Part shown: one piece after another, positions 3,882 to 51,756 of the stretch
How the letters are laid out: each line of letters starts with the position of its first letter
Numbering within the stretch: the first letter of the stretch is position 1
Source of the DNA: a virus
Lineage: Duplodnaviria; Heunggongvirae; Uroviricota; Caudoviricetes
Length of the DNA stretch: 64,000 bases
IMG/VR virus record: IMGVR_UViG_3300006141_000002
Direction: 5' to 3' (one strand)
Position numbers and translations under genes: made by a program
Notes under the pieces: model-generated
What the model was told of the DNA's origin: nothing
Seen by the model: the letters and a program-made list of their open reading frames with translations, nothing else
Database searches by the model: none

Positions 3882-4384
3882 GGCCTCTTACGATTTGCCG
3901 GCGGCTTTTTGGATATGCCAAGACGATTAAAGTCCTTTGCCGCATATGTCATAACGCGGCCTTGGTAATCTGAAATCGGGGAAAACCTGCCCACTGAATA
4001 CAGATCCAATTCGCCAAGCCCAAAATATCTGCTGCCGTTTAGCTCCTTGTTGATTTCAACGGCCAGTTGATCCGTGCGAATGCCACCTTGACTCAAACGC
4101 ATTTTGCTTTTATGGGCGAACACCCATAAGTAAAGCACTGGCTCGTAATATGTCTTGTCGTATACTTGTGCGATATCCACATCAAAGCAGATGAATATTC
4201 TGCCATCATCCACAGTCTCCGGGATGTATTCAAACGGAAATAGTTGAGTGTATGCCAAGCTGTAATTTGGAACCGGTGCGCTCTCGCTATCTGTCACTAA
4301 CCTGACAATATTCTCGTTCTTGCACAACGTTTCCATCAGCTTGTTCTTGTAGTCAAAAAATTCATTAAGAAGCATTACAACCAC
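3878..4384 (-). CDS. hypothetical phage morphogenesis protein
   Basis: translationally coupled ORF in structural operon. Confidence 0.4.
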   Translation of the reverse strand: MVVMLLNEFFDYKNKLMETLCKNENIVRLVTDSESAPVPNYSLAYTQLFPFEYIPETVDDGRIFICFDVDIAQVYDKTYYEPVLYLWVFAHKSKMRLSQGGIRTDQLAVEINKELNGSRYFGLGELDLYSVGRFSPISDYQGRVMTYAAKDFNRLGISKKPPANRKRP

Positions 4385-5187
4385 ACCCCATTTCTCTCAA
4401 TTTCTTCTTGTGTGGCCTTATCCTTCTCGACAGCCGCAGCCGCAATTTCTTCAAATGTCGCCTCTATCTTGGTGTCTGGCGTAATACGGTCAGTCCGTGG
4501 CTTCCAGCTATAATAATCTGCAATTCGCAACTGAGTATTATCATTGTCTGTCAGATTTGACTCTCCCATGATAAACCGAAATACACCTTTACCATTGAAG
4601 ACATTGAACATCTTATTGGGCTTTGTTACCTCGAACGCAAGCACATCTTTCGAGTCTATATCGTCAATCAGGAATCTCCTTCCACGACTGATTTGGCTTG
4701 TCTCCGTGTCCTTGCCGATAGTAACAGCCATTCTGGCATCACCAATCGACATAGTATCTTCTTCGCGTTCACCAATCAGATACTTAGTTCCGTCTTCAAC
4801 GACACACCAGCGACCAATTACATTGCCTTTATCATTGATCCATTTGAGGTAGTAGTTGCAGCGCCGCATCTTCCCCTCAGAGCATAGCTCCTTATGGGCA
4901 TTCAGTTCTGTGATTAGCCAATACGAGTCTTCCCATTCAATAACTGATCCATGTGGAAGTGTCTCGCCAGGCATGGAGAAGATTTTCTTAGTCCCAAAAT
5001 CATTTGAGACATCGACAATCGCCATTTGCATATCTGCGCCTGAGCACTTTACGCGCTTATACGAAAGGGAAGAAACAAGCTTTCGACGCATTCTGCTTTG
5101 GATGTGATCTTGGGCGGAGTTCCAGCGTGGGTCCATATCCTGATTCCCTTGCGCAAACCGCGCCTCATAAGTGCTCCATACACTCAT
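4375..5187 (-). CDS. hypothetical phage structural protein
   Basis: 270-aa ORF in structural operon. Confidence 0.4.
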   Translation of the reverse strand: MSVWSTYEARFAQGNQDMDPRWNSAQDHIQSRMRRKLVSSLSYKRVKCSGADMQMAIVDVSNDFGTKKIFSMPGETLPHGSVIEWEDSYWLITELNAHKELCSEGKMRRCNYYLKWINDKGNVIGRWCVVEDGTKYLIGEREEDTMSIGDARMAVTIGKDTETSQISRGRRFLIDDIDSKDVLAFEVTKPNKMFNVFNGKGVFRFIMGESNLTDNDNTQLRIADYYSWKPRTDRITPDTKIEATFEEIAAAAVEKDKATQEEIERNGVWL

Positions 5188-5192
5188 TCAGA

Positions 5193-5522
5193 TCACCCCT
5201 CCCCACCGCAATATTTTTCTCGTAGCTTTTTGCAAATCGAAATTGCCTTGAATACTTCGCGTTTAACCACCGGCGTATCACAATCATTGTCAATCAGATA
5301 TTGGAGAATTGACAGAAGCGCCATATACATGGAGTCATATTTGAGATACCGCATCAAGCCCTTATGCCCAAGCAGCTCCACTTGTAGGCTCCGCATGAAC
5401 TCGTTCAAAGAGGGCTCCCCGCTTTCTTTAATGGGGAGAATTTTGAAGAACTGGTTCACAAGGCCGCCCAAATAGTTCCCAACCATTTCAGTAGGGATGT
5501 TATAACCATTTGTCGTTCTCAT
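5193..5522 (-). CDS. hypothetical head-tail connector-sized protein
   Basis: 109 aa, between capsid and tail genes. Confidence 0.35.
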   Translation of the reverse strand: MRTTNGYNIPTEMVGNYLGGLVNQFFKILPIKESGEPSLNEFMRSLQVELLGHKGLMRYLKYDSMYMALLSILQYLIDNDCDTPVVKREVFKAISICKKLREKYCGGEG

Positions 5523-10076: not shown

Positions 10077-11633
10077 TTACCCATTCATGCTGTCGTCGCC
10101 ATCATCATGCTCTTGTGACGACTCTCCGGAATCCGTCAGGTCACCAATTTCCTTCTTTGGCCTCCCAGCGTCGCCAGTTCCGTCAGAACCGCTGCCAGAA
10201 TTCTCAGATTGTCCACTACTGATAGTCGAAGAACTCTGCAGCGGCTTAAACCGGCTCTTAAGGTCAAGCACGTCATTTTCCAAAAAGTCCATGCAATCCA
10301 TGTCGGCCTGTGAAAGTCCTTGCGAAACACAATAATGTGACAGCATGGGGAGCCCATACTGCGCTCCCTTCAAATATTGTTCTCCGATCTCGCGCCGGTT
10401 GTATGGGCTCACATCGAGGAATGTAACCTTGAAATTCTTTCCGTAGGAGTAACTCTGGATAAAACGGTTGACCACACACTCGATGCTCTTCACGATTCCA
10501 TATGTCAGAGCTTGGTCTGCCTTGATAGACAGCAAAAGCGCATTGCTCGACGCTTTATCGTTGTTAAAGAGCAGGGTCGATACGCCAGCAGAGGTAAACA
10601 GATTTTGTTCCGCATCTGCAATCGTGTCTGTGTCACCGGTATTGGACTTTTCAAAACTTATTTTGTTGATGTCCATTGGGGACAATACGGCTCCGACTTC
10701 CTCCGGCAATACACCGTCGAGGTTAGAGTAAAACTCCCTCGCCTTGTCAAAGTCCATCTCCCACTCGCCATCCTTATTGATGCCAAGACGCATGACCAGT
10801 AAGGCGTAATTCTCCAGTTCCGTTTTTGTCATCTTCAAATTCCTGTAATCTTCCAGGTCGTAAATATCTCTGAAAATACCGGCGAACGGAGGAACGGAAT
10901 AATTCAAAATATCGTTGTTGCACTTCACGGCAAACGAAGTGGGTGAGTCAAGTTCCTGCCATTTCATCCCAGTTCTGTCGTCTTGGTACAGATTGTACTT
11001 TTTATTGAACTCAGGAGGATACAGTTCAAGGAACTCGCTATTTGAATCAAAATACGAGAAATCGAATGACACGTTCAACACGTTACCCTCAATTACTGCA
11101 ATCTCACAGTAATCAGACGGGAGTTGCTGAATGGTTACATTGTCATTGGTGACCCACATAGTCCCAAAGAAGGTATCCTCGCGCAGGCAGACAGTCAATA
11201 TCTTAGGAAACTGATTCTTGATATCCATAGCGGAAAGCATATTGAGCGTACGCCTGTACTGCTTCCCTATCGTGGCCGCCTTGGCGGTACTTGTGTCGAT
11301 CCTGTACGGAGATACGATATAAGACAAATCGGACAAAGCTACAAAATACTGTATCAACCGTCTGAAATGCGAACTTGCTGCATACATATAGATTGCCGCA
11401 TTACGCAAATTCTTCTGGTAAGAATACGGATTTGTCAGATAAGTCGCAATCTGATCTTTCGTATACTTATAGAATGTAGGGCTTCTTCCGCTGCCGTTCA
11501 GATCGCGCATAATCACACGATTAAGTGCCGCAAATCTCTGCGGAATTCTAATCAGCCCGTTCGCATCAAATGTCAGTGGTTCTTTATGCGGATTATCAAC
11601 ACTCTCCTGTGCATCTACAATTTTCCTTGCCAA
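10077..11633 (-). CDS. portal protein
   Basis: 518 aa directly downstream of large terminase, acidic Ser/Gly-rich C-terminus. Confidence 0.5.
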   Translation of the reverse strand: MARKIVDAQESVDNPHKEPLTFDANGLIRIPQRFAALNRVIMRDLNGSGRSPTFYKYTKDQIATYLTNPYSYQKNLRNAAIYMYAASSHFRRLIQYFVALSDLSYIVSPYRIDTSTAKAATIGKQYRRTLNMLSAMDIKNQFPKILTVCLREDTFFGTMWVTNDNVTIQQLPSDYCEIAVIEGNVLNVSFDFSYFDSNSEFLELYPPEFNKKYNLYQDDRTGMKWQELDSPTSFAVKCNNDILNYSVPPFAGIFRDIYDLEDYRNLKMTKTELENYALLVMRLGINKDGEWEMDFDKAREFYSNLDGVLPEEVGAVLSPMDINKISFEKSNTGDTDTIADAEQNLFTSAGVSTLLFNNDKASSNALLLSIKADQALTYGIVKSIECVVNRFIQSYSYGKNFKVTFLDVSPYNRREIGEQYLKGAQYGLPMLSHYCVSQGLSQADMDCMDFLENDVLDLKSRFKPLQSSSTISSGQSENSGSGSDGTGDAGRPKKEIGDLTDSGESSQEHDDGDDSMNG

Positions 11634-11647
11634 ACTTACTCACCTCC

Positions 11648-13378
11648 TTACTTGATTTTTGGTGCCCTAAACAAAAACGTCTGCCCTGTTGAAGGCAGAG
11701 ATGCGCTCCTTTTGCGCATCTTGTTTTCAACTTGGCAGGCGACCCAATAATTATAGGCTAAGCTGGAATATCTGTCCTTCCGTTTGCCAGAACGCTCAAA
11801 TATCCGCACATACCCATCCTTTTCCTCGTGCTGCAGTTTCGTTAATTCATCAATCAGTAGCGTCGTGTGGACATATGGAAGAGATAACTGCGTGCGCTCT
11901 ACCGGATTAAGGGATGAATATCCGCGCAATTCGCTCATACTGGTTTCTCCGCCAACCTCGGTCTCCAAAAGGCGAATACGTCCGCTTCTGAATCCTTCGC
12001 GCAGAAGATACGCAATATCGGAGTTGAACTTCTTGGATGCTTTGATTGACCAGATCACTTTTCTGGCGTCAGGAACCGTACACCGCGCCGCCATCTCTGG
12101 ATCATTGCAACACGATATGGCTGGATAAATATCACCAGTAACGGGGTCTGGAATGTCTCGCATAATCAGATCCGCAACGCCCGCGCCCACACCGTTGGCA
12201 TCGATTACAAGATAGTCACAATCGTAATCATCAAACATCTTGCGGATAAGTAAAGCCTGGTCTGCAGTGTGCATACCCTCGTTGCTGTCCGCATACACGA
12301 TATTACTCACATACCGGCCAGCTTTTGTTGGTAGCATCTGATTGATAAAGATTGCCGTTGCGTCATTCTTTCGTTTCTTACTGCGCATAAGAGCGATATC
12401 AACGGAGAGAATTCTTTTCTCTCCGACCTTCTTTGGAACAATGCGGATATTCTGATTAGAGGATATTTTACCGGATATATTGTCCGGCAACATCGGATAC
12501 TTGATGCGTCGATTCTTGGACAGCGACTCAAAATCAAAGAACGCATCTTCGCTGGAGCCATAGAACAATGCTTCATACTCCATTGAGAATTTTACTTCTG
12601 AAAAATCTGTCTCAGACATTTCGTCCAAAACCGTATTTGCGTCCAGCAGCCCTTCTTCAATCGAAAGCTGATAAGGGAGGCTGCATACAAATTGAGACTT
12701 TGAGTCATTGAGCATTTCTTCAAAGGTGTCCACACATTTCGTATAGCTCCAATGATCCGTATAATATGCGGAACTGAGATACGCCGTCATATTCTTATCT
12801 TTGTCGTACTCAATGTTGCGCTCCGCCTTTGACAATTCCTCATACTTCGGCATACGGCGCTGCGTTAGAAATTTGCGGAGGATCGTATCAATGACATCTT
12901 TTGAGATCAGACGGAACTCATCCAAAATCAGAACGGTGGCACGATTACCTCTCGCGGAGTCACCAGCAGTGACAACCTTGATGTAGCTGCCATTTTTGAA
13001 TATGATCTTTGCATCCGTTCCGTTGATTTTCGCATCTTCAATTTCTGCGGCCAATTCTGGTGAGTTTGGTTTCAGTTCCAGCATGATTTTCTCAAGCACA
13101 TTGATAGACTGACCTCGCGTACCAGACGCAATGACTATTTTCGACCCAGGCCACAAGATAGCCTTAACGCAGCAAAAAATAGCACTCAGATAAGTTTTGC
13201 CAATACCACGCGAGCCAATGAACACATTGTTCGTGCTTCGCATCATCATAATAATGACGATCTTCTGGAACAGTCTCAGGTCAATATGTAAATAGTCTTT
13301 GACGAACCTGTGTGGGTTCGCTCGATAGTAGGCGCAGTATTGAGCTACGCCTTCCATAACCCGTTCAACTTTCGTCAT
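11648..13378 (-). CDS. terL: terminase large subunit
   Basis: Walker A-like GSRGIGKT, Walker B LILDEF, C-terminal nuclease-sized domain; start refined to internal MTKVER Met. Confidence 0.7.
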   Translation of the reverse strand: MTKVERVMEGVAQYCAYYRANPHRFVKDYLHIDLRLFQKIVIIMMMRSTNNVFIGSRGIGKTYLSAIFCCVKAILWPGSKIVIASGTRGQSINVLEKIMLELKPNSPELAAEIEDAKINGTDAKIIFKNGSYIKVVTAGDSARGNRATVLILDEFRLISKDVIDTILRKFLTQRRMPKYEELSKAERNIEYDKDKNMTAYLSSAYYTDHWSYTKCVDTFEEMLNDSKSQFVCSLPYQLSIEEGLLDANTVLDEMSETDFSEVKFSMEYEALFYGSSEDAFFDFESLSKNRRIKYPMLPDNISGKISSNQNIRIVPKKVGEKRILSVDIALMRSKKRKNDATAIFINQMLPTKAGRYVSNIVYADSNEGMHTADQALLIRKMFDDYDCDYLVIDANGVGAGVADLIMRDIPDPVTGDIYPAISCCNDPEMAARCTVPDARKVIWSIKASKKFNSDIAYLLREGFRSGRIRLLETEVGGETSMSELRGYSSLNPVERTQLSLPYVHTTLLIDELTKLQHEEKDGYVRIFERSGKRKDRYSSLAYNYWVACQVENKMRKRSASLPSTGQTFLFRAPKIK

Positions 13379-14441
13379 CCTGATCCTCCTCTCCAAACAC
13401 ATCGGAGAAGAAGGTCTCATCATCTTCGTCGTCAAACTCCGGTCGCTCCAGCCGCCGTTTTGCGATTTCTTTTTCATAAAGCGCAGAATAGGCGTTCTTT
13501 TTCCCGAGCATCTTTGATAGATGACCTCTGAGCCAGATATCTATATACCTGACAATGCCGTCAACATCCTGCATCTCTGGATCTGGCTCCGGGATTGGCC
13601 TTTTATCTTCCCATCGTTTGATCCACACTCCAAATGGCGTCTTCTCCATAGAACCATCTGCATTGTCCGCTTTCTGACTTGGTTTCAGCATAGCGCTCCC
13701 AAGCAGTGTGTTCAGTGTACCGATTGCCTTGTCCACAGATTTTCCTGCAGCACGGTCGCGGTTGATGTCAACCTCAAGGTTGCAGATTTGCCGGATCAGA
13801 GCTTTGATACCGATACCGAGATCAACGCCTTCAGGAAGGTTGCTCATCCAATAATTCCTTCTCTGCTCAAGTTCGATATACATGGTTGGAGTAAGCCCAG
13901 GTCCCCAGAAGTCAATAACATCCTGGTCAATCTGTATGTCTTGCTCCTGATCCTCACCTTCAACGTTGCCGTCGTGCTGCCGCAGCATCCACGCCGATTT
14001 ATCAGCTTCCGCTGCTGCCTCCTCGTCCAGTGTGTCGTCAAATGTCTTTCCGACAAACTGATATAGATTCGACTTACTGATATAGCTTAAAACCCTGGAG
14101 TTCGTTGTAGAAGATTTGTTGAGCATCTTATAAATGTCGTCACTCCAGTAGATGTCGAACTTCAGACAAATACGTCTGAGAGCAGCCCTCTCGGCCTTTT
14201 CATCTCCGAGCACATCTCTATAATGTTCCTTGTAGTGATCGTACAGTTCATCAACGCAATGCCTGCAAACAGGGAGATAACCGCCATTCTCACGCCACAT
14301 TGGACTTTGCACCGCAGGAAAATTCGATTTCTGTTTGGTAAAAGACCTGGGACAGCGTGTGCAATAAAATCTGTCAGGCTTATCTTTGACAGGAGCGGCT
14401 ACATTCGGCCTGGAACTGGTAATCTTACTCTGCTTTGGCAT
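13365..14441 (-). CDS. putative terminase small subunit / zinc-ribbon DNA-binding protein
   Basis: immediately upstream of terL, N-terminal CTRC...CRHC zinc ribbon, acidic C-terminus. Confidence 0.3.
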   Translation of the reverse strand: MPKQSKITSSRPNVAAPVKDKPDRFYCTRCPRSFTKQKSNFPAVQSPMWRENGGYLPVCRHCVDELYDHYKEHYRDVLGDEKAERAALRRICLKFDIYWSDDIYKMLNKSSTTNSRVLSYISKSNLYQFVGKTFDDTLDEEAAAEADKSAWMLRQHDGNVEGEDQEQDIQIDQDVIDFWGPGLTPTMYIELEQRRNYWMSNLPEGVDLGIGIKALIRQICNLEVDINRDRAAGKSVDKAIGTLNTLLGSAMLKPSQKADNADGSMEKTPFGVWIKRWEDKRPIPEPDPEMQDVDGIVRYIDIWLRGHLSKMLGKKNAYSALYEKEIAKRRLERPEFDDEDDETFFSDVFGEEDQDDES

Positions 14442-32562: not shown

Positions 32563-32648
32563 CTATGAGAGTGTAGCTCAGTGGCAGAGCGGGGCAGATA
32601 CATGCCTGTCAACCGGATATGCGCTGCGTGGGTTCGATTCCCACCACT
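32563..32648 (+). tRNA. tRNA-like gene, anticodon unresolved (possibly CAU)
   Basis: acceptor GAGAGUG/CACUCUC, D arm AGCUCAGUGGCAGAGC, T arm GUGGGUUCGAUUCCCAC; the anticodon region did not fold cleanly by eye. Confidence 0.4.
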
Positions 32649-32657
32649 CTCTAATAT

Positions 32658-36748: not shown

Positions 36749-36782
36749 CCCCGTAGCTGAAAAGTTACGGGGTTCTTTGCGG
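36749..36782 (+). terminator. rho-independent terminator
   Basis: CCCCGUAGC-UGAAAAG-UUACGGGG then UUCUUU. Confidence 0.5.
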
Positions 36783-36893
36783 CCTGATCGGCCCCACCTC
36801 CTCGTGGTTCAGGCTGGGGAGCCCCCGATGGGGGGGGGTGAGCAAACGGGGTACATATTAAGGGCAAAGCCCGAACAGAAAGGATGTATCAGT

Positions 36894-37295
36894 ATGGCAA
36901 AGATCACCATTGCTGGTGACGCGATCATCGTCACCAGCGGCAAGAGCCTCAAGGCTCTGAAGACGCTGGAGGAGTACCGCCCGAAGGCTCTTCGTCTCAT
37001 CGAGACCGATGAGAACGGTAAGAAGGAGGAAATCTTCCGCGTGGAGACCGCCGCTGCTGCCGGCAGCATCAACCAGAACGGCGCGACTTTCGCCTCCGAG
37101 ACCCACGACGAGGCGAAGCTGGCCACCATCACGATTCCCGTCCCCGCTGGGACTGAGAACGTGATCGACTATGCTGCCAAGCTGGTCGGCAAGGCCGTGG
37201 TTCGCCTGAACAAGGTGGAGGCCGGCATCGACGATGCCCTGGCCGAGGTCGAGGCTGAGAACGCCGAGGTCATGGCTAACATCACCGTCATCTAA
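36894..37295 (+). CDS. hypothetical protein upstream of the Ubl-conjugation genes
   Basis: RBS AAAGGA; 133 aa, Ala-rich; in-frame ATG at 36828 immediately followed by a 9-G tract. Confidence 0.45.
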   Translation: MAKITIAGDAIIVTSGKSLKALKTLEEYRPKALRLIETDENGKKEEIFRVETAAAAGSINQNGATFASETHDEAKLATITIPVPAGTENVIDYAAKLVGKAVVRLNKVEAGIDDALAEVEAENAEVMANITVI

Positions 37296-37382
37296 GGATG
37301 GCTAAGTCCGGGCGGGGGAATCCCCGCCCGGCAACACAAACCTGTCAACCCAAAATTTTTTGAATAAGAAGGAGAATGAATC

Positions 37383-37637
37383 ATGATTAACGTCACTATC
37401 GGTAACAACCTGAAGCGCGCCCGTTTCAACCTGAACCCCAACACCACCATCCGCCAGGCTCTGGAGAGCACCCAGGGCGAGACCGGCATCGACTACTCCG
37501 TGGGTATGCTGTCCCTGGACGGCGAGACCGTCACCGGTGCCAAGCTGGATCAGACCTTCGCCGAGATGGGCTACACCGGCGAGCCCGGCCACGACAAGTG
37601 CTTCCTGATCTCCGTCGTCAAGGCTGACAACGCCTGA
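37383..37637 (+). CDS. 84-aa candidate ubiquitin-like (beta-grasp-sized) protein
   Basis: size, beta-beta-alpha start (MINVTIGNN..KRARFNL..TTIRQALES), and position directly upstream of the E2/JAB/E1 genes; no terminal GG. Confidence 0.35.
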   Translation: MINVTIGNNLKRARFNLNPNTTIRQALESTQGETGIDYSVGMLSLDGETVTGAKLDQTFAEMGYTGEPGHDKCFLISVVKADNA

Positions 37638-37726
37638 TCAGACCCACCGCAGTCCCCTATACATAGGGCCGAGGGCTCCCATCTGAGCGGTGGGAGCCCT
37701 TAAATCTTTCAGAAAAGGAGCAGGCT

Positions 37727-39220
37727 ATGTTCTCAAAAGAAATCACTGGTCTGACTCTCACCAATGAGATCGCATCGACCGTATTCCCGAATATCGGCGG
37801 AGATAAGTTCCGCAATGACGAGTCGTTCGTTGCGACCTTGAGAGCTTTGCTGTATAGCAGGGTTCCGAAAGAGGAGTCAATCACACTGCGATATAAAAGC
37901 ACAGACTACAGTTCCGGGCAGTTATCTGGCTCGTCTCCGAGAGACTGCGTCAGGGCTTTCTTTAACCGAACTCCGATTATGGATGGTTCAACCGGCATTT
38001 TGCTCATCCATTCATTTGAGGGGAGCGACGAGAGCAACACAACCTGCTTCGAGAAACTCGTTGAAGGTGTTCCAAAGACAGTCTCTGGATACAAGCTCCT
38101 GGCGGATCTGTCCGCATGGATTGAGAGCGACGCAAAGTTCCGCGCCAAGGTCTATGTGAACGAGGAGTACCGCAACACCATCATCTTCACGGAAAAGATG
38201 AACATGAAGCGGTGGCACATGCTGGAGTCTCTGATTTCCCGCTACTTCCCGTGGTACTTCGAGTCCAATCCGATGACTGACGAGGAGATTGAGATCGTCA
38301 AGACGCTCACAAAGCGTTACGCCCCCAGCTATGAAACGAAGATTCAGGAGTTCGCCAAGCGGTTTGACTTCCGGTCACAGGTTATCCGCAATCAGTTGAC
38401 CGGCTTTGAAACACACTTTGACCGCCGGAAGCTGGAGTCCGTCCGCAGCCAGATCAACGATATGGATCGCAGGATGCGTGATTTGGAGAGCACTTTCTCC
38501 AATTACTACCAGCAGATGGACGACCTGAGAACGCAGGAGTGCGGTCTGGTCGATAAAATCACACACGGAGGCGGCGCGGAGAGCAGCGAGCTTTTGGACT
38601 ACTTCCTATGCAACAATTCGCTGCATCTGGTCAGCGTATACAATGGCGAAATCAAGTTCATTGTAACCACCACGGTTGCAAACTTCGATCCTGACGCAGC
38701 GGAGTCCGTCATTCAGAATAACCGTAGCTACATCTATGAATATCGTGACAACGAAAATATGACGGTAGAGCGCATTAAGCGTCTGATGACGGAGATTTTC
38801 GTCAAAGAGACGATGAAGATTCGCATTTGCGCCGCATATTCGCTGAACTTCGATAACGGCAGGTACGCCGGGATTAGCGGATACGATTTCCCGTCGGATA
38901 TCATCATGGATCACACGCCGAACCAGCACATCCAGGCGTTTCACTGCCTTGGTGGAAATGAGGCGACAATTCGCCAATCTATGCGTAACCGGGATTATGT
39001 CGGCGCGGTAGCTGCTTGTGTTCAGTCGGCAAAGAGCGTCAATGTTCAGGAGAGCGCAACAACCGGCAAGATGACGCAGTTGCTGTTCTCGAACAGGATC
39101 GGTAAGGTAATCGAAATGCCCGACGGTACGACCAAGACGCCGTTTGAGGCCGTATTGTGGTTGGAGGAACAAGATGTCAAGGCGAAGAAAGAAAAAGAAC
39201 AGGAGGAGAGCCATGAGTAA
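37727..39220 (+). CDS. 497-aa protein with C-terminal E2(UBC)-like active-site region
   Basis: HTPNQHIQAFHCLGG reproduces the E2 HPN-x7-Cys spacing; operon context with JAB and E1. Confidence 0.4.
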   Translation: MFSKEITGLTLTNEIASTVFPNIGGDKFRNDESFVATLRALLYSRVPKEESITLRYKSTDYSSGQLSGSSPRDCVRAFFNRTPIMDGSTGILLIHSFEGSDESNTTCFEKLVEGVPKTVSGYKLLADLSAWIESDAKFRAKVYVNEEYRNTIIFTEKMNMKRWHMLESLISRYFPWYFESNPMTDEEIEIVKTLTKRYAPSYETKIQEFAKRFDFRSQVIRNQLTGFETHFDRRKLESVRSQINDMDRRMRDLESTFSNYYQQMDDLRTQECGLVDKITHGGGAESSELLDYFLCNNSLHLVSVYNGEIKFIVTTTVANFDPDAAESVIQNNRSYIYEYRDNENMTVERIKRLMTEIFVKETMKIRICAAYSLNFDNGRYAGISGYDFPSDIIMDHTPNQHIQAFHCLGGNEATIRQSMRNRDYVGAVAACVQSAKSVNVQESATTGKMTQLLFSNRIGKVIEMPDGTTKTPFEAVLWLEEQDVKAKKEKEQEESHE

Positions 39221-40085
39221 GCCCATTAAGCTCACGGACGAGCTGCTGCAAAAAATTCAGGAGGAGTTCATCGCAAAGGTGAAGTCCACCAAGATGTTTG
39301 ACGGAAAGCTGGAATACAGCCGGACGTTCAAGTGGGAGGGCGATGACGACCGGGCAACTGTCTACCTGTCCTCGATTGCCTTCGCCAAGATGAACTCGCT
39401 CATTCAGCAGTTCAACGACGAGGTCGCGTGGCACGGCGTGGTTCACCGTGATGAGCAGGATCCGTCCATCTTCCACATCACCGACATTTTGGTATACCCG
39501 CAGGTTGTTACCGGCGCAACGGTCAACACCGATCAAGAGGCGTACCAGACGTGGCTTTACTCCTTTGATGATGATGTGTTCAATAACATCCGGATGCAAG
39601 GACACAGCCACGTCAATATGGGCGTGTCTCCCTCTGGTGTGGACACAACTCACCAGGAGAAGATTCTGGAGCAAATCTCCGATGACGACTACTACATCTT
39701 CATGATCTGGAACAAGCGGTACGAGCACTTTGTCCGCATCTTCGATCTGAAGAACAACACCCTGTACGACACGGCAGATGTTGATGTGTATATTGGAGAT
39801 GTCGGCGTGGATCTTCAGGCTTTCATCAGCAGCGCCAAGGAGATCGTCACCAACAGAACCTATAAGCCTGTCACCGGTTTTCAGGGAACCTATCAGCAGA
39901 CGCAGACGCGGGTCGTCACACCCATCAGTCAGACAACAACGCCGGCGGCGACGGCCGGTGCGAGCGTCGTCGGAGTCAAAACAAAACCGAAGGTAAACGG
40001 AGGTGATACCGGCATTGGCCGGTCCTTTTCCGACTACCAATTCGACGAAGACGATCCCTATGACCGCCTATACCTCGGACAGTAA
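39213..40085 (+). CDS. JAB/MPN+ (JAMM) metalloprotease, deubiquitinase-like
   Basis: HSHVNMGVSPSGVD matches the JAMM HxHx7Sx2D motif; upstream Glu in EVAWHG; 8-nt overlap with upstream gene. Confidence 0.65.
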   Translation: MSKPIKLTDELLQKIQEEFIAKVKSTKMFDGKLEYSRTFKWEGDDDRATVYLSSIAFAKMNSLIQQFNDEVAWHGVVHRDEQDPSIFHITDILVYPQVVTGATVNTDQEAYQTWLYSFDDDVFNNIRMQGHSHVNMGVSPSGVDTTHQEKILEQISDDDYYIFMIWNKRYEHFVRIFDLKNNTLYDTADVDVYIGDVGVDLQAFISSAKEIVTNRTYKPVTGFQGTYQQTQTRVVTPISQTTTPAATAGASVVGVKTKPKVNGGDTGIGRSFSDYQFDEDDPYDRLYLGQ

Positions 40086-40102
40086 GAAAGGAGAGACAAA
40101 CA

Positions 40103-40774
40103 ATGGATTTGGCGAAGTCCTACGAATTCTTCAAGCCGGATATGCTCGAATCGCGGATTCATATCATCGGCTGTGGAGCGATTGGTTCCACGGTCGCTGA
40201 GAATCTGGTGCGGTTCGGCATTACGAAAATCACGCTGTATGACTTCGATACCGTAGAAGCCCACAACATTGCCAACCAGATGTTCCGGAATACGGATATC
40301 GGCAAGGCCAAGGTTGATGCTTTGGCTGAGTATCTCACCGAGATCAATCCGGACTGCGCCCCCGATCTGAAGCTGGTCAAAGAGGGCTGGACAGGCCAGC
40401 GTCTCTCCGGTTATGTGTTCCTGGCGGTGGACAACATTGACCTCCGCCGGGAGATCGCCACCTCCTGTAAGGAGAACACGTTCGTCAAGGGGATGTTCGA
40501 CTTCCGGATGCGGCTGACGGACGCCCAGCACTATGCCGCTGACTGGAGCGACAAGAAGATGGTGGAGAACTTTATCGACAGCATGGCGTTCTCTCATGAT
40601 GAGGCAAAAGAGGCGACGCCCGTTTCTGCCTGCAATATCACACTGTCGGTTGTTCCGACGGTGCGAACGATCGTTGCCTACGGCGTAGCCAACTTCATCA
40701 ACTTCGTGAAGGGCGAGAAACTCCGCAAGATGATTCTTGTGGATGCTTTTGAATTCGACGTGATCGCCGTGTAA
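40103..40774 (+). CDS. E1-like ThiF/MoeB-family adenylyltransferase
   Basis: IHIIGCGAIGSTVAENLVRFGITKITLYDFDTVEAHNIANQMF matches the Rossmann GxGxxG + DxDxVExSNLxRQ-like ThiF signature. Confidence 0.7.
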   Translation: MDLAKSYEFFKPDMLESRIHIIGCGAIGSTVAENLVRFGITKITLYDFDTVEAHNIANQMFRNTDIGKAKVDALAEYLTEINPDCAPDLKLVKEGWTGQRLSGYVFLAVDNIDLRREIATSCKENTFVKGMFDFRMRLTDAQHYAADWSDKKMVENFIDSMAFSHDEAKEATPVSACNITLSVVPTVRTIVAYGVANFINFVKGEKLRKMILVDAFEFDVIAV

Positions 40775-40794
40775 GGCATCACGTTTTACGATAG

Positions 40795-40835
40795 TTCTAT
40801 AGGGGCAGTGGCTTTGGTTGCCGCTGCCCCTTCCA
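40795..40835 (+). terminator. rho-independent terminator after the E1 gene
   Basis: GGGGCAGUGGC-UUUGGUU-GCCGCUGCCCC then UUCC. Confidence 0.5.
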
Positions 40836-40839
40836 TATA

Positions 40840-41218
40840 GTCTGTATTGCATTACTTTCAGAGTTATTCTGAGGGTGCTCTGTATTGTAAATCAGAGTTG
40901 CGCATGGCTGGGAGAAGGGACACCCCGCCCGGAGGCGGAATCTGAAGGCGCCTGCCCGCCACCGAGGTCAAGAGGTAATAAATAAACTGTTTTCTACTGC
41001 TCCAAATACGCAAAGAACTCTTGACATCTCGACCAGAAAGGTGACGGACAGCAAACAGGAAGACAGATGGCGACCCCAAGAACCATCGGACCGCCGCAAA
41101 TCACTCACCAGATTACCCACCGAGCCCGCACTCAGTCCCAGCTCTCAAGTACCCATCGCATCCTGAATTCCTCAACCTACTGTATACCAGAATACAGACA
41201 TCAGGAGGTATTAAAAAT
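40840..41218 (+). ncRNA. candidate retron-type ncRNA (msr/msd) or structured leader upstream of the RT
   Basis: GC-rich hairpins; ATAGTCTGTATTG at about 40840 complementary to CAGAATACAGAC at about 41184 (a1/a2-like). Confidence 0.2.
40878..40897 (+). repeat. hairpin repeat copy 1 (CTCTG-TATTGTAAAT-CAGAG) with 25-nt conserved 3' extension
   Basis: 5 copies in window, stem covaries in copy 5. Confidence 0.6.
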
Positions 41219-42358
41219 ATGCCATACATAACCGTCATGCAATCGCCTGCATACCATCAGATATCATTTGAGGAAATCATATCTGGTGAGGTCAACATGC
41301 AGTCTATGATAACTTCAAACAGCACCAATACCAGAACGCATTTCGCACAGCGACTCAAGCCACAGTTTCTGGATCGGTTCGATTTCGCCGGTATGGTCTC
41401 CGCTCTGGAGAGTTTTTGCGAACAAAATGCCGAGCTGTATGCCGTTCCGAGAGAAGCCCTCTATACCACATTCCATATTCCGAAGAAGTCCGGCGGCCTG
41501 CGTGAGATCAATGCCCCTGTGCCAGAACTGATGACGGCGCTTCGGAATCTGAAGACTTTGTTTGAGACCAAGATGTTTGCGCTGTACCACACCTCCGCCT
41601 TTGCCTATGTTAAGAATCGTTCCACCATTGACGCCATCAAACGTCACCAGAGGAATGACAGTCATTGGTTCTTAAAGACGGATTTCTCGAACTTTTTTGG
41701 GGACACAACGCTGGTATTCCTTCGGTATTCGCTCTCTTTGATTTTCCCGTTCAGCGAGATTGTCAAGTCAGAACGGGGCAGAGCAGCACTGGACAAGGCA
41801 CTCAACCTCTGTTTTCTTCATGGCGGATTGCCGCAGGGCACGCCGATTTCTCCGATGCTCACAAATCTGATGATGATCCCCCTTGATCACAAGGTATACA
41901 ATACCCTGCGTGATTTTAACGGGCAGTCGTTCGTTTACACCAGATACGCAGACGACTCTCTAATTTCAAGCCGGAGAGAGTTTGACTACAATAAGGTCAT
42001 CGACTTCATCAATCAGACGCTGGATGATTTCCATGCGCCGTTCAAGATCAAGGATGAGAAGACGAGGTATGGTTCCAGAGCCGGCAGTAATTGGAACCTC
42101 GGGCTCATGCTCAATAAGGACAATGAGATCACCATCGGTCACAAGAACAAGCAGCGTTTTCGTGCAATGATCAGCAACTACATCCTCGACCGTAAGAACG
42201 GAATTGTCTGGGAACTGCACGATGTTCAGGTTTTGCGCGGCCTTATCAACTACTACCGGATGGTTGAAGAAAAGTATGTTGACGAGGTCATCAAGTACAA
42301 CAACGAAAAATATCAAACGGACGTAATGCGTACCATCCATGAGGATTTGGCCGCATAA
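41219..42358 (+). CDS. retron-type reverse transcriptase
   Basis: IPKKSGGLREI, NRSTIDAIKRH, FLKTDFSNFFG, LPQGTPISPMLTNL, YTRYADD; C-terminal region alignable to the retron INxKKT...VTG...IG region with NLG for VTG. Confidence 0.7.
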   Translation: MPYITVMQSPAYHQISFEEIISGEVNMQSMITSNSTNTRTHFAQRLKPQFLDRFDFAGMVSALESFCEQNAELYAVPREALYTTFHIPKKSGGLREINAPVPELMTALRNLKTLFETKMFALYHTSAFAYVKNRSTIDAIKRHQRNDSHWFLKTDFSNFFGDTTLVFLRYSLSLIFPFSEIVKSERGRAALDKALNLCFLHGGLPQGTPISPMLTNLMMIPLDHKVYNTLRDFNGQSFVYTRYADDSLISSRREFDYNKVIDFINQTLDDFHAPFKIKDEKTRYGSRAGSNWNLGLMLNKDNEITIGHKNKQRFRAMISNYILDRKNGIVWELHDVQVLRGLINYYRMVEEKYVDEVIKYNNEKYQTDVMRTIHEDLAA

Positions 42359-45324: not shown

Positions 45325-45429
45325 CCCCGAAAGGGGAACGTGCAAACATGGTATTTAATAAGACAGCGCACCCATGCGGTCTATAACAATGTGGGGAACG
45401 GCCCGGCTATACGCCGGGCCTCTTTTACG

Positions 45430-45847
45430 GGGCCGTAAAGGTTTCGACGGGGTTCTGAGAGAGTAAGATTCGCAGGTAGAGACCGCCTTAAGGCTAAACA
45501 AAAAATGAAATGACAATGATATGAGTGTTGTTATGATCCATCCCGCTTTCGCCGCCTTCATGGCAGAGAGGGTCGCCGCTTAACTGTCGGCAGGATTCCA
45601 AAACGGTACACCTCTGGCTGGGTAAGTACCTGCGGTCGAGGATACGCCAGAAAAACAGTTTTCCTTGTAATCTGTTCAAAAAGACAAGGTGGTGGAGGTG
45701 TACTTAACTGGTACGCCCTGGGGTAGATTTGGATTCCATCTTGGTGCCCCGCCATAAGGCATCCACCTAAAAGGAAACCTATTGCGTAAAAAGGTCTTGC
45801 TCATGTAGGAATTTCGGACGCGGGTTCGATTCCCGCCGGCTCCACCA
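45430..45847 (+). ncRNA. ssrA: tmRNA (SsrA)
   Basis: 5' GGGGCCGUAAAGGUUUCGACGGGG and 3' GGACGCGGGUUCGAUUCCCGCCGGCUCCACCA match the tmRNA tRNA-like domain consensus; candidate tag ORF ending ..AFMAERVAA-stop near 45540-45590. Confidence 0.7.
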
Positions 45848-49014: not shown

Positions 49015-49815
49015 ATGATTCTGGTGAACAGAACCCCTGTTAACTTTACGCAGTTCCCAGACGGGACCACATCCTTCCGCCTTGATACCAAAGACGCTGT
49101 CTGGTTCCGTATTGAGTGGCGGTATGATGGCGACCACGAGTGTATGCTCCTGTGGCATTTGGTGCATCACATTCGGGCGAACAATCGGATGGGTGTGGAT
49201 ATTGAGCTCGTTTTGCCGTACATTCCCAATGCTCGTATGGACAGGGTCAAGAGCGGCGACGAGGTGTTCACCCTGAAATGGTTCGCCGAGTTCATTAACA
49301 CTCTCAACTTTCGTAAGGTTGAAGTGCTTGATCCACATTCCAATGTGGCGGCAGCGCTTATCGACCGCATCTGCGTGAAGGAGCCTGCGGACAATATCCG
49401 TCTGGCTATTGAGCGTGTCATGGCTGATACAGGCGATACTGATGTTCTGATGTGCTACCCGGACGAGGGCGCTGCCAAGCGGTACTCCGACCTGATGGGC
49501 CGGGAGTATGTGTTCGGTATCAAGCACCGTGACTGGCGCACTGGCAAAATTGAAGGGCTTGAACTCGCCAACAGTGAGAAGGTCGCCGGTCGAAATGTTC
49601 TTATTGTGGACGACATTTGCTCCCGTGGCGGTACGTTTACCCATACTGCTGCTGCCCTGAAAGAAGCTGGTGCAAAGGAAATTTTTCTGTATGTGTCCCA
49701 TTGTGAGAGCACCATCTTCAAGGGCTCCGTGTTGACAGATGGCCAGATTTCACGAGTATTTACAACAAACAGCATCTATCGTGGTGAACATGAGAAAGTG
49801 GCTGTATTAGAGTAG
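49015..49815 (+). CDS. PRPP-synthetase-like phosphoribosyl pyrophosphokinase (Prs/Adps-like)
   Basis: VLPYIPNARMDR (Prs catalytic flexible loop), VLIVDDICSRGGTF PRTase type I motif. Confidence 0.6.
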   Translation: MILVNRTPVNFTQFPDGTTSFRLDTKDAVWFRIEWRYDGDHECMLLWHLVHHIRANNRMGVDIELVLPYIPNARMDRVKSGDEVFTLKWFAEFINTLNFRKVEVLDPHSNVAAALIDRICVKEPADNIRLAIERVMADTGDTDVLMCYPDEGAAKRYSDLMGREYVFGIKHRDWRTGKIEGLELANSEKVAGRNVLIVDDICSRGGTFTHTAAALKEAGAKEIFLYVSHCESTIFKGSVLTDGQISRVFTTNSIYRGEHEKVAVLE

Positions 49816-50008: not shown

Positions 50009-50233
50009 ATGCTGTTTCTAATCGTTTTAATTGTTATCACTTACATTCTGATTGGTTCTTCTCTTGGCGGTTTTTACTACTACCTGATGTATAAAAAGAA
50101 CAGCTATAGCGACCTGGAAGATATGCACTATCTACCAATATGGATCATGGCTTTGTGGTTTATCGTGGCTCCTCTTGCATTTGCAATCTACTATGCGGGA
50201 AAGAAAGTTGAAAGTGAGGATGATGAGAAATGA
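50009..50233 (+). CDS. small two-TM membrane protein
   Basis: hydrophobic helices; RBS GAGGTGA. Confidence 0.4.
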   Translation: MLFLIVLIVITYILIGSSLGGFYYYLMYKKNSYSDLEDMHYLPIWIMALWFIVAPLAFAIYYAGKKVESEDDEK

Positions 50234-51756
50234 GTGGTTGTTGCTACAATCCACTGCTTTGCCTGGACTTTTACAAGACGGCCCACGCAGAGCAGTATCC
50301 GCAGACCCTGACCAAGATGGTCTCCTACTACACTCCCCGCATGACCCGGCTGGGAGACACAGATAAGGTCACGATGTTTGGCCTCCAGGCGTTCATCAAG
50401 GAGTACCTCGTTGATGCCTTCAACCACTTTTTCTTCCAAGAGGACTGGGAGGATGTCCTCAGCGAGTATAAGCGGGTTCTCAACGCCACCATCAACACCG
50501 ATGGTGTTGGAGAAAAGCGCCTGAAAGCTCTTCATGACTTGGGCTATCTTCCCCTAGAGATTCGGGCCGTGCCGGAGGGTGTGCGTACCAATATCAAGGT
50601 GCCGCAAATTGAGATTTCCAACACCCATCCGAACTTTGTGTGGCTGGTGAACTCCATTGAGACCATGCTGTCCTGCACCATGTGGCACACCCAAGTTTCC
50701 GCCGAGGTCGGCTATCGCTACCGCCAAATCGTCAACGAGTTTACAGATCGCACCTGTGATGACAGCGTGGTCCGCGCCAGACTCCTTGGCGATTTTTCCA
50801 TGCGTGGTCAAGAGAGCGTGGAGAGCGCCACCAAAAGTTCTGCCGCTTTCTGTCTCAGCTTCCTGAACACCGCCACTGTTCCCGCAATCCTGTGGCTGGA
50901 GGACAACTATCACTGCGACTGTGCTAAGGAGCCGGTAGCCTATGGCGCTTTGTCCACCGAACACAGCGTGATGTGTTCCAACTTCGCTATGGACGGTGAC
51001 GAGGTCACCCATATCCGCCGTCTGCTGACCGAGATTTACCCTCACCAGAACTTCTCCATGGTCAGTGACAGCTACGATTACTGGAATCTGGTAGACAACA
51101 TCCTGCCGCAGCTCAAAGACGAGATTCTGGCACACGATGGATGTCTGCTTATCCGTGGAGACAGTGGAGACCCCGTCGAGGTCGTGACCAAGACTGCGTT
51201 CAAGCTGTGGGACATTTTTGGAGGCACCGTGAACAGCAAGGGGTTCAAAGTGCTGAATCCGCACGTCAAGGCGTTGTATGGTGACAGCATTACTCCCCAG
51301 CGATGCAAGCAAATCTATCAGATTCTGGAATCCAACGGGTTTGCCATTAACAATGTCTCCCTTGGCGTCGGTTCCTTCTCCATGCAGTGCTTGGAGACTT
51401 TGGAACGAAGTGAACCCAATCCCGTTTCCGGTATCTCTGTTGTCAATAAGACATACGCACCATACACCCGTGACACCTTTGGTATCGCCGTTAAGGCCAC
51501 CTATGCCGAGGATGCAGACGGCAAGCCCATCATGATTTTCAAGAATCCCAAGACCGACACTGGTCACTTCAAGAAGTCTCAGCGGGGTTGCTGCCGTGTG
51601 ATCAAAAACGGTGATAACTACATCTATAAGGATGGCCTAACTTGGGCTGAGGCTCAAGAGAACAATGAATTACGGGTGGTCTTCAAGAATGGGGAGTTCA
51701 TCAAAATTTATACCTTGGATGAGGTTCGGCAGAATCTCCATGGAGGGGAATTTTGA
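50230..51756 (+). CDS. nadV: nicotinamide phosphoribosyltransferase (NAMPT/NadV/Namat-like)
   Basis: 508 aa; CYNPLLCLDFYKTAHAEQYP N-terminus typical of NAMPT; start overlaps upstream stop. Confidence 0.65.
   Translation: MSGCCYNPLLCLDFYKTAHAEQYPQTLTKMVSYYTPRMTRLGDTDKVTMFGLQAFIKEYLVDAFNHFFFQEDWEDVLSEYKRVLNATINTDGVGEKRLKALHDLGYLPLEIRAVPEGVRTNIKVPQIEISNTHPNFVWLVNSIETMLSCTMWHTQVSAEVGYRYRQIVNEFTDRTCDDSVVRARLLGDFSMRGQESVESATKSSAAFCLSFLNTATVPAILWLEDNYHCDCAKEPVAYGALSTEHSVMCSNFAMDGDEVTHIRRLLTEIYPHQNFSMVSDSYDYWNLVDNILPQLKDEILAHDGCLLIRGDSGDPVEVVTKTAFKLWDIFGGTVNSKGFKVLNPHVKALYGDSITPQRCKQIYQILESNGFAINNVSLGVGSFSMQCLETLERSEPNPVSGISVVNKTYAPYTRDTFGIAVKATYAEDADGKPIMIFKNPKTDTGHFKKSQRGCCRVIKNGDNYIYKDGLTWAEAQENNELRVVFKNGEFIKIYTLDEVRQNLHGGEF

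Follow-up and report, generated by a model that had tools for sequence, protein, structure and literature searches.

A five-gene cassette in a tailed phage

The DNA analysed here (hereafter the window) is a stretch of 64,000 nucleotides from the Caudoviricetes record IMGVR_UViG_3300006141_000002 of IMG/VR. It holds five consecutive open reading frames (ORFs), all on the + strand, that together make up what we call the cassette: p133, a small conserved protein; Ubl (or p84), a predicted ubiquitin-like protein; p497, a large protein with a putative conjugating-enzyme (E2) domain; a metallopeptidase with the motif of the JAB family; and a compact activating enzyme (E1) of the ThiF/MoeB type, in that order (Table 1). 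An initial annotation, made from the letters and a list of ORFs, had delimited these five genes, and each was found where it had been placed, with an AGGAG-type ribosome-binding site 6-10 nt ahead of its ATG. Our best reading of the locus is that a phage here encodes its own ubiquitin-like protein along with three enzymes acting on it, one for activation, one of the conjugating type and a peptidase for deconjugation.

Table 1. Positions of the cassette genes, associated features and neighbouring genes in the window
Feature	Position	Strand	Remarks
p133, conserved 128-134-aa protein	36894..37295	+	directly 5' of the Ubl gene in 76/82 loci
GC-rich 10-bp hairpin just 3' of the p133 stop	37308..37331	+	gap -28.9 kcal/mol, z -3.2
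Ubl (p84), predicted ubiquitin-like beta-grasp, ends ...VVKADNA	37383..37637	+	
13-bp hairpin 3' of the Ubl stop	37671..37701	+	gap -33.7 kcal/mol, z -3.4
p497, proposed E2/E3-like hybrid, candidate catalytic Cys407	37727..39220	+	
E2-like active-site motif in p497, P398-N-Q-H-I-Q-A-F-H-C407-L-G409	38918..38953	+	conservation; hhalign register not significant
JAB/MPN+ metallopeptidase, JAMM domain within about aa 43-170, variable low-complexity C-terminal tail	39213..40085	+	
Compact ThiF/MoeB-type E1 adenylation domain, 223 aa	40103..40774	+	Pfam ThiF 1.6e-26, above cut-off
Retron-type reverse transcriptase	41219..42358	+	NCBIfam retron St85-family RT 2e-51, PADLOC RT_II-A 6e-47
Portal protein	10077-11633	-	PHROG 2739, 8.5e-111
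Large terminase	11648-13477	-	45% identity with YonF, terminase of Bacillus phage SPbeta and relatives

The cassette is conserved as a unit. Six window proteins, the five of the cassette and a downstream retron-type reverse transcriptase (RT), were compared by tblastn with 82 related loci from IMG/VR, ENA and Logan contigs. p497 was recovered in 82 of these, JAB and E1 in 81 each, RT in 79, p133 in 76 and Ubl in 75. Note that the loci had been selected for carrying p497. Gene order is identical in all loci while p497 identity falls to 26-35%, and the closest flanking ORFs tested were almost never recovered in the same set. An unverified phage contig in GenBank (MT835544) has the same six genes, with a p497 that is only 24.5% identical. 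Because the same order recurs in about 80 independent contigs, the co-occurrence of the five genes is far above chance. The two small ORFs, which the initial annotation had singled out because they sit where bacterial conjugation operons have their Ubl gene, are by homologues and synteny real conserved genes.

The spacing of the genes is similarly constrained. The genes for p497 and JAB are separated by 13 nt or less, or overlap, in all 68 loci measured (in the window there is an 8-nt overlap between the JAB start and the p497 stop, and the same Met serves as the start in homologues). JAB and E1 lie a median of about 5 nt apart, with an insertion in 20 loci, and the gap between p133 and Ubl is 173 nt at most. 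From E1 to RT, the median distance is 1151 nt, with other genes in between.

The predicted activating enzyme and peptidase

The E1 belongs, as judged by sequence, to the E1/ThiF-MoeB adenylation superfamily, in agreement with what had been read from its Rossmann motif. Its best match in the PDB is the active adenylation domain of Uba1 (5.5e-12), followed by UBA6, TcdA, MoeB, UBA5 and Cap2. PADLOC models for the E1-E2 proteins of CBASS, the anti-phage signalling system based on cyclic oligonucleotides, match it down to 1e-20, and the NCBIfam match is '6A-MBL cap2_3'. At least 90% of 63 E1 sequences share the GCGxxG loop (G23-C-G-A-I-G28), D47xD49, N55, K70, D110-N-x-x-x-R115 and, within a TPVSAC motif, Cys177.

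In the peptidase, the JAMM motif with an upstream Glu that had been noticed on first inspection proves to be invariant: E70, H131, H133, S141 and D144 (E…HxHx7Sx2D) are found in all 29 homologues. A profile built from these homologues has Rpn11 as its sole match in the PDB (E 0.02), with the Glu and HSH…S..D aligned. The PADLOC JAB (CBASS JAB) model matches with E 0.004, and Pfam returned no match for the protein. On its motif, the gene product is a predicted JAB/MPN+ (JAMM) peptidase. The initial annotation had also pointed to a different affiliation for this gene, with the tail-assembly proteins of the lambda gpK type. We rejected this candidate: tail genes are absent nearby, the protein has no NlpC/P60 domain, and PHROGs gave no match for Ubl, p133, p497 or JAB and no tail-assembly match for any cassette protein.

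A ubiquitin-like protein ending in Asn-Ala

For Ubl, 23 homologues were recovered. Its predicted structure (pLDDT 86, the predicted local distance difference test) has the order beta-beta-alpha-beta-beta-3(10)-beta and ends in a flexible tail, the last four residues (81-84) being disordered with pLDDT below 50. Among structural matches BilA, the Ubl of the bacterial Bil operons, is best, and SUMO and ubiquitin come ahead of MoaD/ThiS, the best MoaD match standing at rank 25. The model thus bears out the suggestion, originally based on the size of the 84-aa ORF, that the protein would be a ubiquitin-like beta-grasp.

The ranking of these matches bears on the possibility that Ubl carries sulfur in the manner of ThiS/MoaD/TtuB, in which case its adenylate, made by E1, would be turned into a thiocarboxylate that thiolates a tRNA, cofactor or nucleoside, and the cysteines of p497 would relay a persulfide. 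The E1 sequence also matches ThiF, MoeB and TcdA, and 12 tRNAs, a transfer-messenger RNA (tmRNA) and two radical-SAM genes lie nearby. However, sulfur carriers end in Gly-Gly whereas Ubl ends in Asn-Ala, and it is BilA, SUMO and ubiquitin that it resembles before MoaD/ThiS. Within the cassette, Pfam and NCBIfam reveal neither a rhodanese nor a cysteine desulfurase, PP-loop ATPase or ThiG/MoaE partner, and neither a UBC-like fold nor the fusions of Ubl to p133 described below would have a place in a sulfur pathway. We consider this explanation very unlikely.

Nearly all Ubl homologues close with K-x-D-N-A, which is either the very end or is extended by A, AA, R, GQ, TSK or LAA, and the N-A is kept in about 90% of them. 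In a few distant Ubls the C-terminus reads K-S-D-G-G-S-N or K-S-D-G-G-I-Q, with Gly-Gly at the Asn-Ala positions, a variant that is rare. By analogy, tails of this kind would be the pattern of a Ubl precursor that is trimmed, but with Ala as the exposed residue; Type II BilA has a short C-terminal tail that is removed by BilC (PMC10557695). An argument from a Cap2 preprint that bacterial E1s accept a C-terminal Ala was dropped, as the preprint gave no support for it.

p133 as a candidate partner of Ubl

p133 has no match in Pfam, NCBIfam, PHROGs, PADLOC or a PDB profile search, and hhalign detected no relationship between it and the Ubl profile. The two proteins are nevertheless joined in nature: at L056/L057, L072 and L073, which represent four independent metagenome contigs and three distinct sequences, Ubl and p133 are fused in frame as a single ORF with Ubl first. 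The fused proteins are 206-225 aa long and correspond to Ubl followed by p133 minus its Met, the junction running from …KADNA into A[Y/E]IK[I/T]AG… (in L072 by way of a 17-residue linker). L073 carries two tandem copies of the fusion (4119-4736, 4848-5480).

Given that such in-frame fusions exist, Ubl would have to be released from them by cleavage after Asn-Ala, an endoproteolytic step of the kind that BilC carries out on Type II BilA (PMC10557695). As they tie p133 to Ubl, p133 would also be expected to work with it, and because the fusion has the covalent layout of Ubl on the p133 N-terminus, p133 is the first substrate to consider. We therefore propose p133, on these sequence grounds, as a candidate dedicated partner of Ubl and as the best candidate substrate.

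The same fusions might be explained without any conjugation, if Ubl were a cleavable folding or assembly chaperone of p133 that is released by JAB, with E1 and p497 serving an unrelated role. Precedents would be lambda gpI/gpK, as predicted in PMC1779556, and the eukaryotic fusions of ubiquitin to ribosomal proteins, and the fused protein, known from four contigs, is about the size of lambda gpI. Yet in at least 90% of loci Ubl and p133 are separate genes with p133 first, and a strictly co-inherited E1 and a Cys-bearing UBC-like protein would be left unexplained. The lambda parallel is further weakened by the features that separate the JAB gene from gpK, namely no tail genes nearby, no NlpC/P60 and no tail-assembly match in PHROGs. 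We regard a pure chaperone role as highly improbable.

Two hairpins flank the Ubl gene, and the gaps that contain them fold unusually well across relatives: the p133-Ubl gap has a median z of -3.7 in 27 relatives (85% below -2), and the Ubl-p497 gap one of -5.05 in 23 relatives (100% below -2). The hairpin after p133 is possibly an attenuator or a stabiliser of the mRNA, and the two together would fit a higher expression of p133 and Ubl than of the enzymes.

Upstream of p133, 39 nt 5' of its start, there is a candidate self-cleaving ribozyme similar to that of hepatitis delta virus (HDV; window 36779-36855, +). Against Rfam RF00094 (gathering score 50) it reaches 34.8 bits, with E 0.066 when 15 kb were searched and 0.00088 when the search covered 201 nt, and its alignment includes the P1 stem, the CCUCCUCG loop and the GC.AA.GGG strand. 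The closest relative has an HDV-like match at the same position (L004 5027-5123, 32.2 bits). Such a ribozyme could set the 5' end of the cassette mRNA. At another locus, L005, two twister-P1 matches lie upstream of the cassette (1558-1624 and 4287-4347; 60.7 and 56 bits against a gathering score of 67.2, E about 1e-10), the second of them adjoining a tRNA array. Self-cleaving ribozymes seem to be common in this phage group.

p497 contains a predicted UBC-like domain

The model of p497 (pLDDT 91) consists of an alpha/beta domain (~1-225), a 54-residue helix (227-280), a UBC/RWD-like domain (~288-455) and a C-terminal helix. The initial annotation had assigned some 380 residues to an N-terminal domain of no recognised kind and expected a UBC/E2 fold at the C-terminus. 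The latter expectation is supported by the model; the former has to be revised, in that the N-terminal part is not one domain but an alpha/beta domain followed by the long helix, with the UBC-like region beginning as early as residue ~288. After the long helix the order of elements is helix, two strands, helical insert, two strands, loop, three helices and a final long helix. Structural matches of the model comprise Knl1, listerin, Spc24/25, Ctf19/Mcm21, FANCL and GCN2-type RWD domains and Cap2 (4.8), with BilB among the E2 matches, as well as MoaB-like proteins. The structure tool does not report aligned regions, and matches were placed by the order of secondary-structure elements; placed in this way, the UBC/RWD matches probably correspond to residues 288-455 and the MoaB-like ones to the N-terminal domain.

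Within the UBC-like domain, HTPNQHIQAFHCLGG occupies residues 396-410, between the fourth strand and the next helix, which is the place of HPN…Cys in E2s. Across 49 homologues N399, H401, C407, G409 and C368 never vary and P398 is kept in at least 90%, giving the consensus P398-N399-x-H401-I-x-x-[YFH]-x-C407-x-G409. The spacing Asn399-x7-Cys407 is that of canonical E2s, for example UbcH5 with N77 and C85. The claim that p497 reproduces the E2 motif HPN-x7-Cys is therefore right with regard to P-N and the distance to Cys, both present and conserved, and wrong with regard to the His of HPN, since H396 falls short of 90% conservation among the homologues and it is His401 that is invariant instead. 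When the C-terminal domain was compared by hhalign with three E2 sequences, the sole local alignment put PN on HPN and Cys on Cys (P 0.15, not significant). Going by the model, we think it very probable that residues ~288-455 form a UBC-fold domain, and still probable, though somewhat less so, that this domain is catalytic.

Alternatively, p497 might be a scaffold or adaptor of the RWD type, so that any conjugation would be driven by E1 and JAB would process and deconjugate. E1-driven conjugation that is independent of an E2 is known from archaeal SAMP/UbaA and from Thermus TtuB/TtuC, and p497 shares the layout of a helix followed by an RWD domain and has no sequence similarity to any E2 family. 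What such a model fails to account for is Cys407, which is invariant in the 49 sequences and kept in MT835544, and which lies in a Pro-Asn/Gln-x-His-x5-Cys-x-Gly motif in the loop between strand 4 and the helix, at the canonical distance from Asn; scaffold RWDs have no reason to maintain a motif of this kind. In addition, p497 is always translationally linked to JAB and E1. We judge the scaffold model to be clearly unlikely.

The family to which p497 belongs is very large and wholly unannotated. A hidden Markov model (HMM) search of 1.84 billion cluster representatives retrieved 2429 p497 clusters with E up to 1e-3, of which 1167 had E up to 1e-30, that is, at least 2,400 clusters at 50% identity. 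The best 150 matches were all full-length family members and therefore provided no transitive link from p497 to known E2s. Searches of Pfam, NCBIfam, PHROGs and PADLOC with p497 gave no family, only coiled-coil noise such as TBCC_N.

Phage and genomic context

That the cassette is encoded by a phage, as had been claimed, is borne out by portal and large terminase genes in the window, the terminase being related to that of SPbeta; the window comes from a large tailed phage of the gut. In IMG/VR, most of the related contigs measure 60-135 kb. A terminase-based scan of viral contigs for carriage of the cassette in related phages yielded 3 loci only. Among 185,579 species-representative genomes the cassette family occurs in just 16 contigs, 15 of which come from metagenome-assembled genomes (MAGs) and the sixteenth from a draft assembly that carries the label Ruminococcaceae bacterium OttesenSCG-928-L11. 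For most of the 16 the label is Clostridia (Oscillospiraceae, Acutalibacteraceae, Ruminococcus), and one match lies on a 359-kb contig, which may be a prophage.

The cassette is co-oriented with the other genes of its + strand block, which also holds a sigma factor, an SPFH protein, the two radical-SAM proteins, a metallophosphatase, genes for a phosphoribosyl pyrophosphate (PRPP)-synthetase-like protein and a nicotinamide phosphoribosyltransferase (NAMPT), and the tRNAs and tmRNA. The PRPP-synthetase-like gene adjoins the NAMPT gene (PHROG 448, 1e-156; window 49015-49815 and 50230-51756, +), making up a NAD-salvage pair; such pairs have been reported as a means by which phages counter NAD-depleting defences. 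The phage tmRNA (window 45429-45847, +; Rfam 96 bits) encodes the tag peptide AVEDTPEKQFSL, and at window 32567-32652 (+) ARAGORN predicts a tRNA with a four-base anticodon (acat), which has an Rfam tRNA score of 46 bits. The window encodes 12 tRNA genes and one tmRNA in all.

The initial annotation had remarked on a retron-like RT beside the cassette. This gene is indeed a conserved neighbour: it lies 3' of E1 in 79 of the 82 loci, usually with at least one other gene between. Its NCBIfam score of 175 bits is under the cut-off of 235. The 444-nt gap ahead of it (40775-41218) folds better than shuffled sequences (z -2.4) and opens with a 12-bp GC hairpin. No msr/msd-like RNA was identified. 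We considered the RT as an integral member of the cassette and rejected it: because variable genes separate it from E1, it is a syntenic neighbour and not a demonstrated component.

Comparison with known conjugation systems

The closest functional parallel is BilABCD (Types I and II), which likewise combines a Ubl (BilA), an E2 (BilB), a JAB deubiquitinase (BilC) and an E1 (BilD) in one operon. In both, some Ubls have short C-terminal tails, whose removal by the JAB protein is shown for BilC (PMC10557695) and would be expected in the cassette. The cassette nevertheless falls outside BilABCD. It is found in phage contigs, at one syntenic position in every related contig examined, and not in bacterial defence islands, and its Ubl ends in Asn-Ala where that of Bil has a universally conserved Gly. 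Its E1 is a single adenylation domain of 223 aa, while BilD has two (one inactive, one active), as well as a Zn site and a helical insertion that bears a Cys. Here the E2-like domain is part of a 497-aa protein with an additional alpha/beta domain and a long helix, and there is a further conserved gene, p133, sometimes fused to Ubl. At the level of sequence, no homology to Bil was detected for either the E2 or the Ubl of the cassette.

With Type II CBASS (Cap2/Cap3) the cassette shares the E1 and JAB matches given above, the CBASS E1-E2 models being the best of those in PADLOC for its E1. It lacks a CD-NTase, an effector and an E1-E2 fusion, and it has a dedicated free Ubl where CBASS uses the C-terminus of the cyclase as its 'Ubl'; as there is no cyclase, the cassette is not CBASS. 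Bub operons, compared here by description, also consist of a Ubl, an E1, an E2 and a peptidase that frees the Ubl from a precursor fusion, the BubAB precursor being cleaved by BubCD (PMC11601596). Bub works through serine oxyesters and a serine protease, whereas the candidate residues of the cassette are cysteines and its peptidase is of the JAMM type, so that the two would not be alike in chemistry.

Among phages, lambda and T1 encode a Ubl (gpI) and a JAB protein (gpK, JAB plus NlpC/P60). In some members of this group the Ubl is fused to a second domain and processing by the JAB protein has been predicted, and the pair was the only phage entry in the survey of Iyer et al. 2006 (PMC1779556). 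It lies inside the tail module and comes without an E1 or E2-like protein. The cassette, by contrast, is about 15 kb from the structural genes and on the other strand, and since it has both an E1 and an E2-like gene and stands outside the tail module, it is not a gpI/gpK system.

A looser analogy is offered by the eukaryotic E2/E3 hybrids UBE2O and BIRC6 and by the ubiquitin fusion precursors UBA52, RPS27A and polyubiquitin. In the former, a UBC domain within a larger protein could choose substrates, and in the latter, the fusion of a Ubl makes a peptidase necessary. We claim no evolutionary link, the domain partners being unrelated.

A proposed conjugation pathway

The results support the reading put forward in the initial annotation, that of a candidate phage-encoded ubiquitin-like conjugation system: an adenylation domain in E1 and a predicted UBC fold in p497 were both recovered, and the JAB gene stood apart from tail-assembly genes. 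No account of Ubl, E1, E2 and JAB encoded together by a phage came up in full-text searches of PubMed Central (PMC) and bioRxiv.

We envisage the following pathway. Ubl would be made either ready for use, ending in Asn-Ala as in the window, or as a precursor with a tail of 1-3 aa or, in some relatives, with p133 fused behind it, and JAB would cut such precursors after Asn-Ala. E1 would adenylate the exposed C-terminal (Ala) carboxylate, perhaps loading Ubl onto its own Cys177, and Ubl would be handed, perhaps by way of that cysteine, to Cys407 of p497, which lies in its UBC-like domain. The other parts of this protein, the N-terminal domain and the long helix, would pick the target or oligomerise the enzyme, so that p497 would act as an E2/E3 hybrid and no separate E3 would be needed. 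Ubl would then be transferred to an amine on the target, and JAB would also reverse the conjugates. Support for this scheme comes from gene content, folds, motifs, conservation, tight linkage and the fusions, from which we infer the chemical steps, the target and the benefit to the phage. That the cassette is a working Ubl conjugation cascade seems to us probable.

A number of observations weigh against this view. The C-terminal Gly used by every characterised Ubl is missing from the Ubl of the cassette. In E1, Asn58 (N-I-A-N-Q) stands at the position of the ATP-contacting Arg of NLxRQ and is Asn in at least 90% of 63 homologues; because the canonical Arg is replaced family-wide, adenylation is not guaranteed. 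In p497, the most distant homologue, MT835544, reads PQPH…C, with Gln for Asn although the Cys is kept. E2 families matched none of the 49 p497 members even at E up to 5, a PDB profile search with p497 returned no E2, and Foldseek against the PDB gave nothing with E below 0.28; the E2 assignment draws on the predicted fold, the motif register and gene context, with no sequence-level support. Finally, the precedent of SPbeta-like phages, which when temperate often carry defence genes, and the match on the 359-kb contig leave room for a role in defence.

This last point deserves a fuller hearing. On a temperate phage, the cassette could act as a Bil-like anti-phage system for superinfection exclusion, with which a lysogen tags and disables the proteins of competing phages. 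The terminase is SPbeta-like, SPbeta is temperate, and one homologue sits in the 359-kb MAG contig that is possibly a prophage. The characterised bacterial operons with Ubl, E1, E2 and JAB are all anti-phage defences, BilA is the best structural match of Ubl and BilB is among the E2 matches of p497, and the conserved neighbour, a retron-type RT, is a typical defence gene. Related operon families have been described as antiviral defence (PMC10557695), and Bil is reported to conjugate its Ubl to the central tail fibre of a phage (10.1101/2023.09.04.556158).

Against this, defence cargo is usually patchy and mobile, whereas the cassette keeps one position and has diverged in parallel with the genes around it over about 80 contigs, a pattern that looks vertical (although, with loci selected by p497, this is not a clean test). 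It is absent from bacterial defence islands, with 16 contig matches among the 185,579 species genomes, 15 of them in MAGs. It is co-directional within a long gene block, with no sigma-70-type promoter match beside it in a consensus scan, and PADLOC matched no system model to it beyond generic E1 and JAB domains. We consider a defence role unlikely. Instead, we lean towards the view, with slightly better than even confidence, that this is a Ubl conjugation system which is expressed by the infecting phage and serves the phage itself.

A more specific picture can be offered tentatively, as one that we would not yet bet on. A very large clade of gut Clostridia phages related to SPbeta may run its own, differently built ubiquitination-like pathway, with a Ubl activated at Ala, a minimal E1 without the canonical Arg, an E2/E3 hybrid, and p133 modified at or near its N-terminus. 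Such a pathway might remodel the phage's own proteins or those of the host, for example to counter host defence.

Other phages and wider significance

ThiF-type E1 genes turned up in two further phages. In the crAss-like Kolpuevirus cr126_1 (L084; 4385-5635, 5638-6651) such a gene directly follows one whose sole annotation is 'metalloprotease' and whose product has a JAMM motif (HSHHILGAFFSGTD; Pfam Prok-JAB 3e-4), and in the Xanthomonas jumbo phage PhiXhv-12 (L083; 5929-6612) it is followed by a 70-aa ORF. No p497 homologue was detected there, and the 393-aa gene 5' of the crAss-like JAB gene is not detectably related to p497. The cassette suggests that the 'ThiF' and 'metalloprotease' genes annotated as pairs in crAss-like phages should be re-examined as possible Ubl machinery.

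To our knowledge, the characterised prokaryotic operons for Ubl conjugation (Bil, type II CBASS and, by genomic context, Bub) are weapons of the host against phages. If our reading holds, a complete cascade at one syntenic position would show that phages use Ubl-conjugation chemistry too, and with the cassette the bacterial conjugation systems Bil, CBASS and Bub would have their first counterpart on the virus side. It would also provide a natural test of whether an E1 can activate C-termini other than glycine, an E2 joined to its own putative substrate-recognition module and, in p133, a ready-made candidate substrate.

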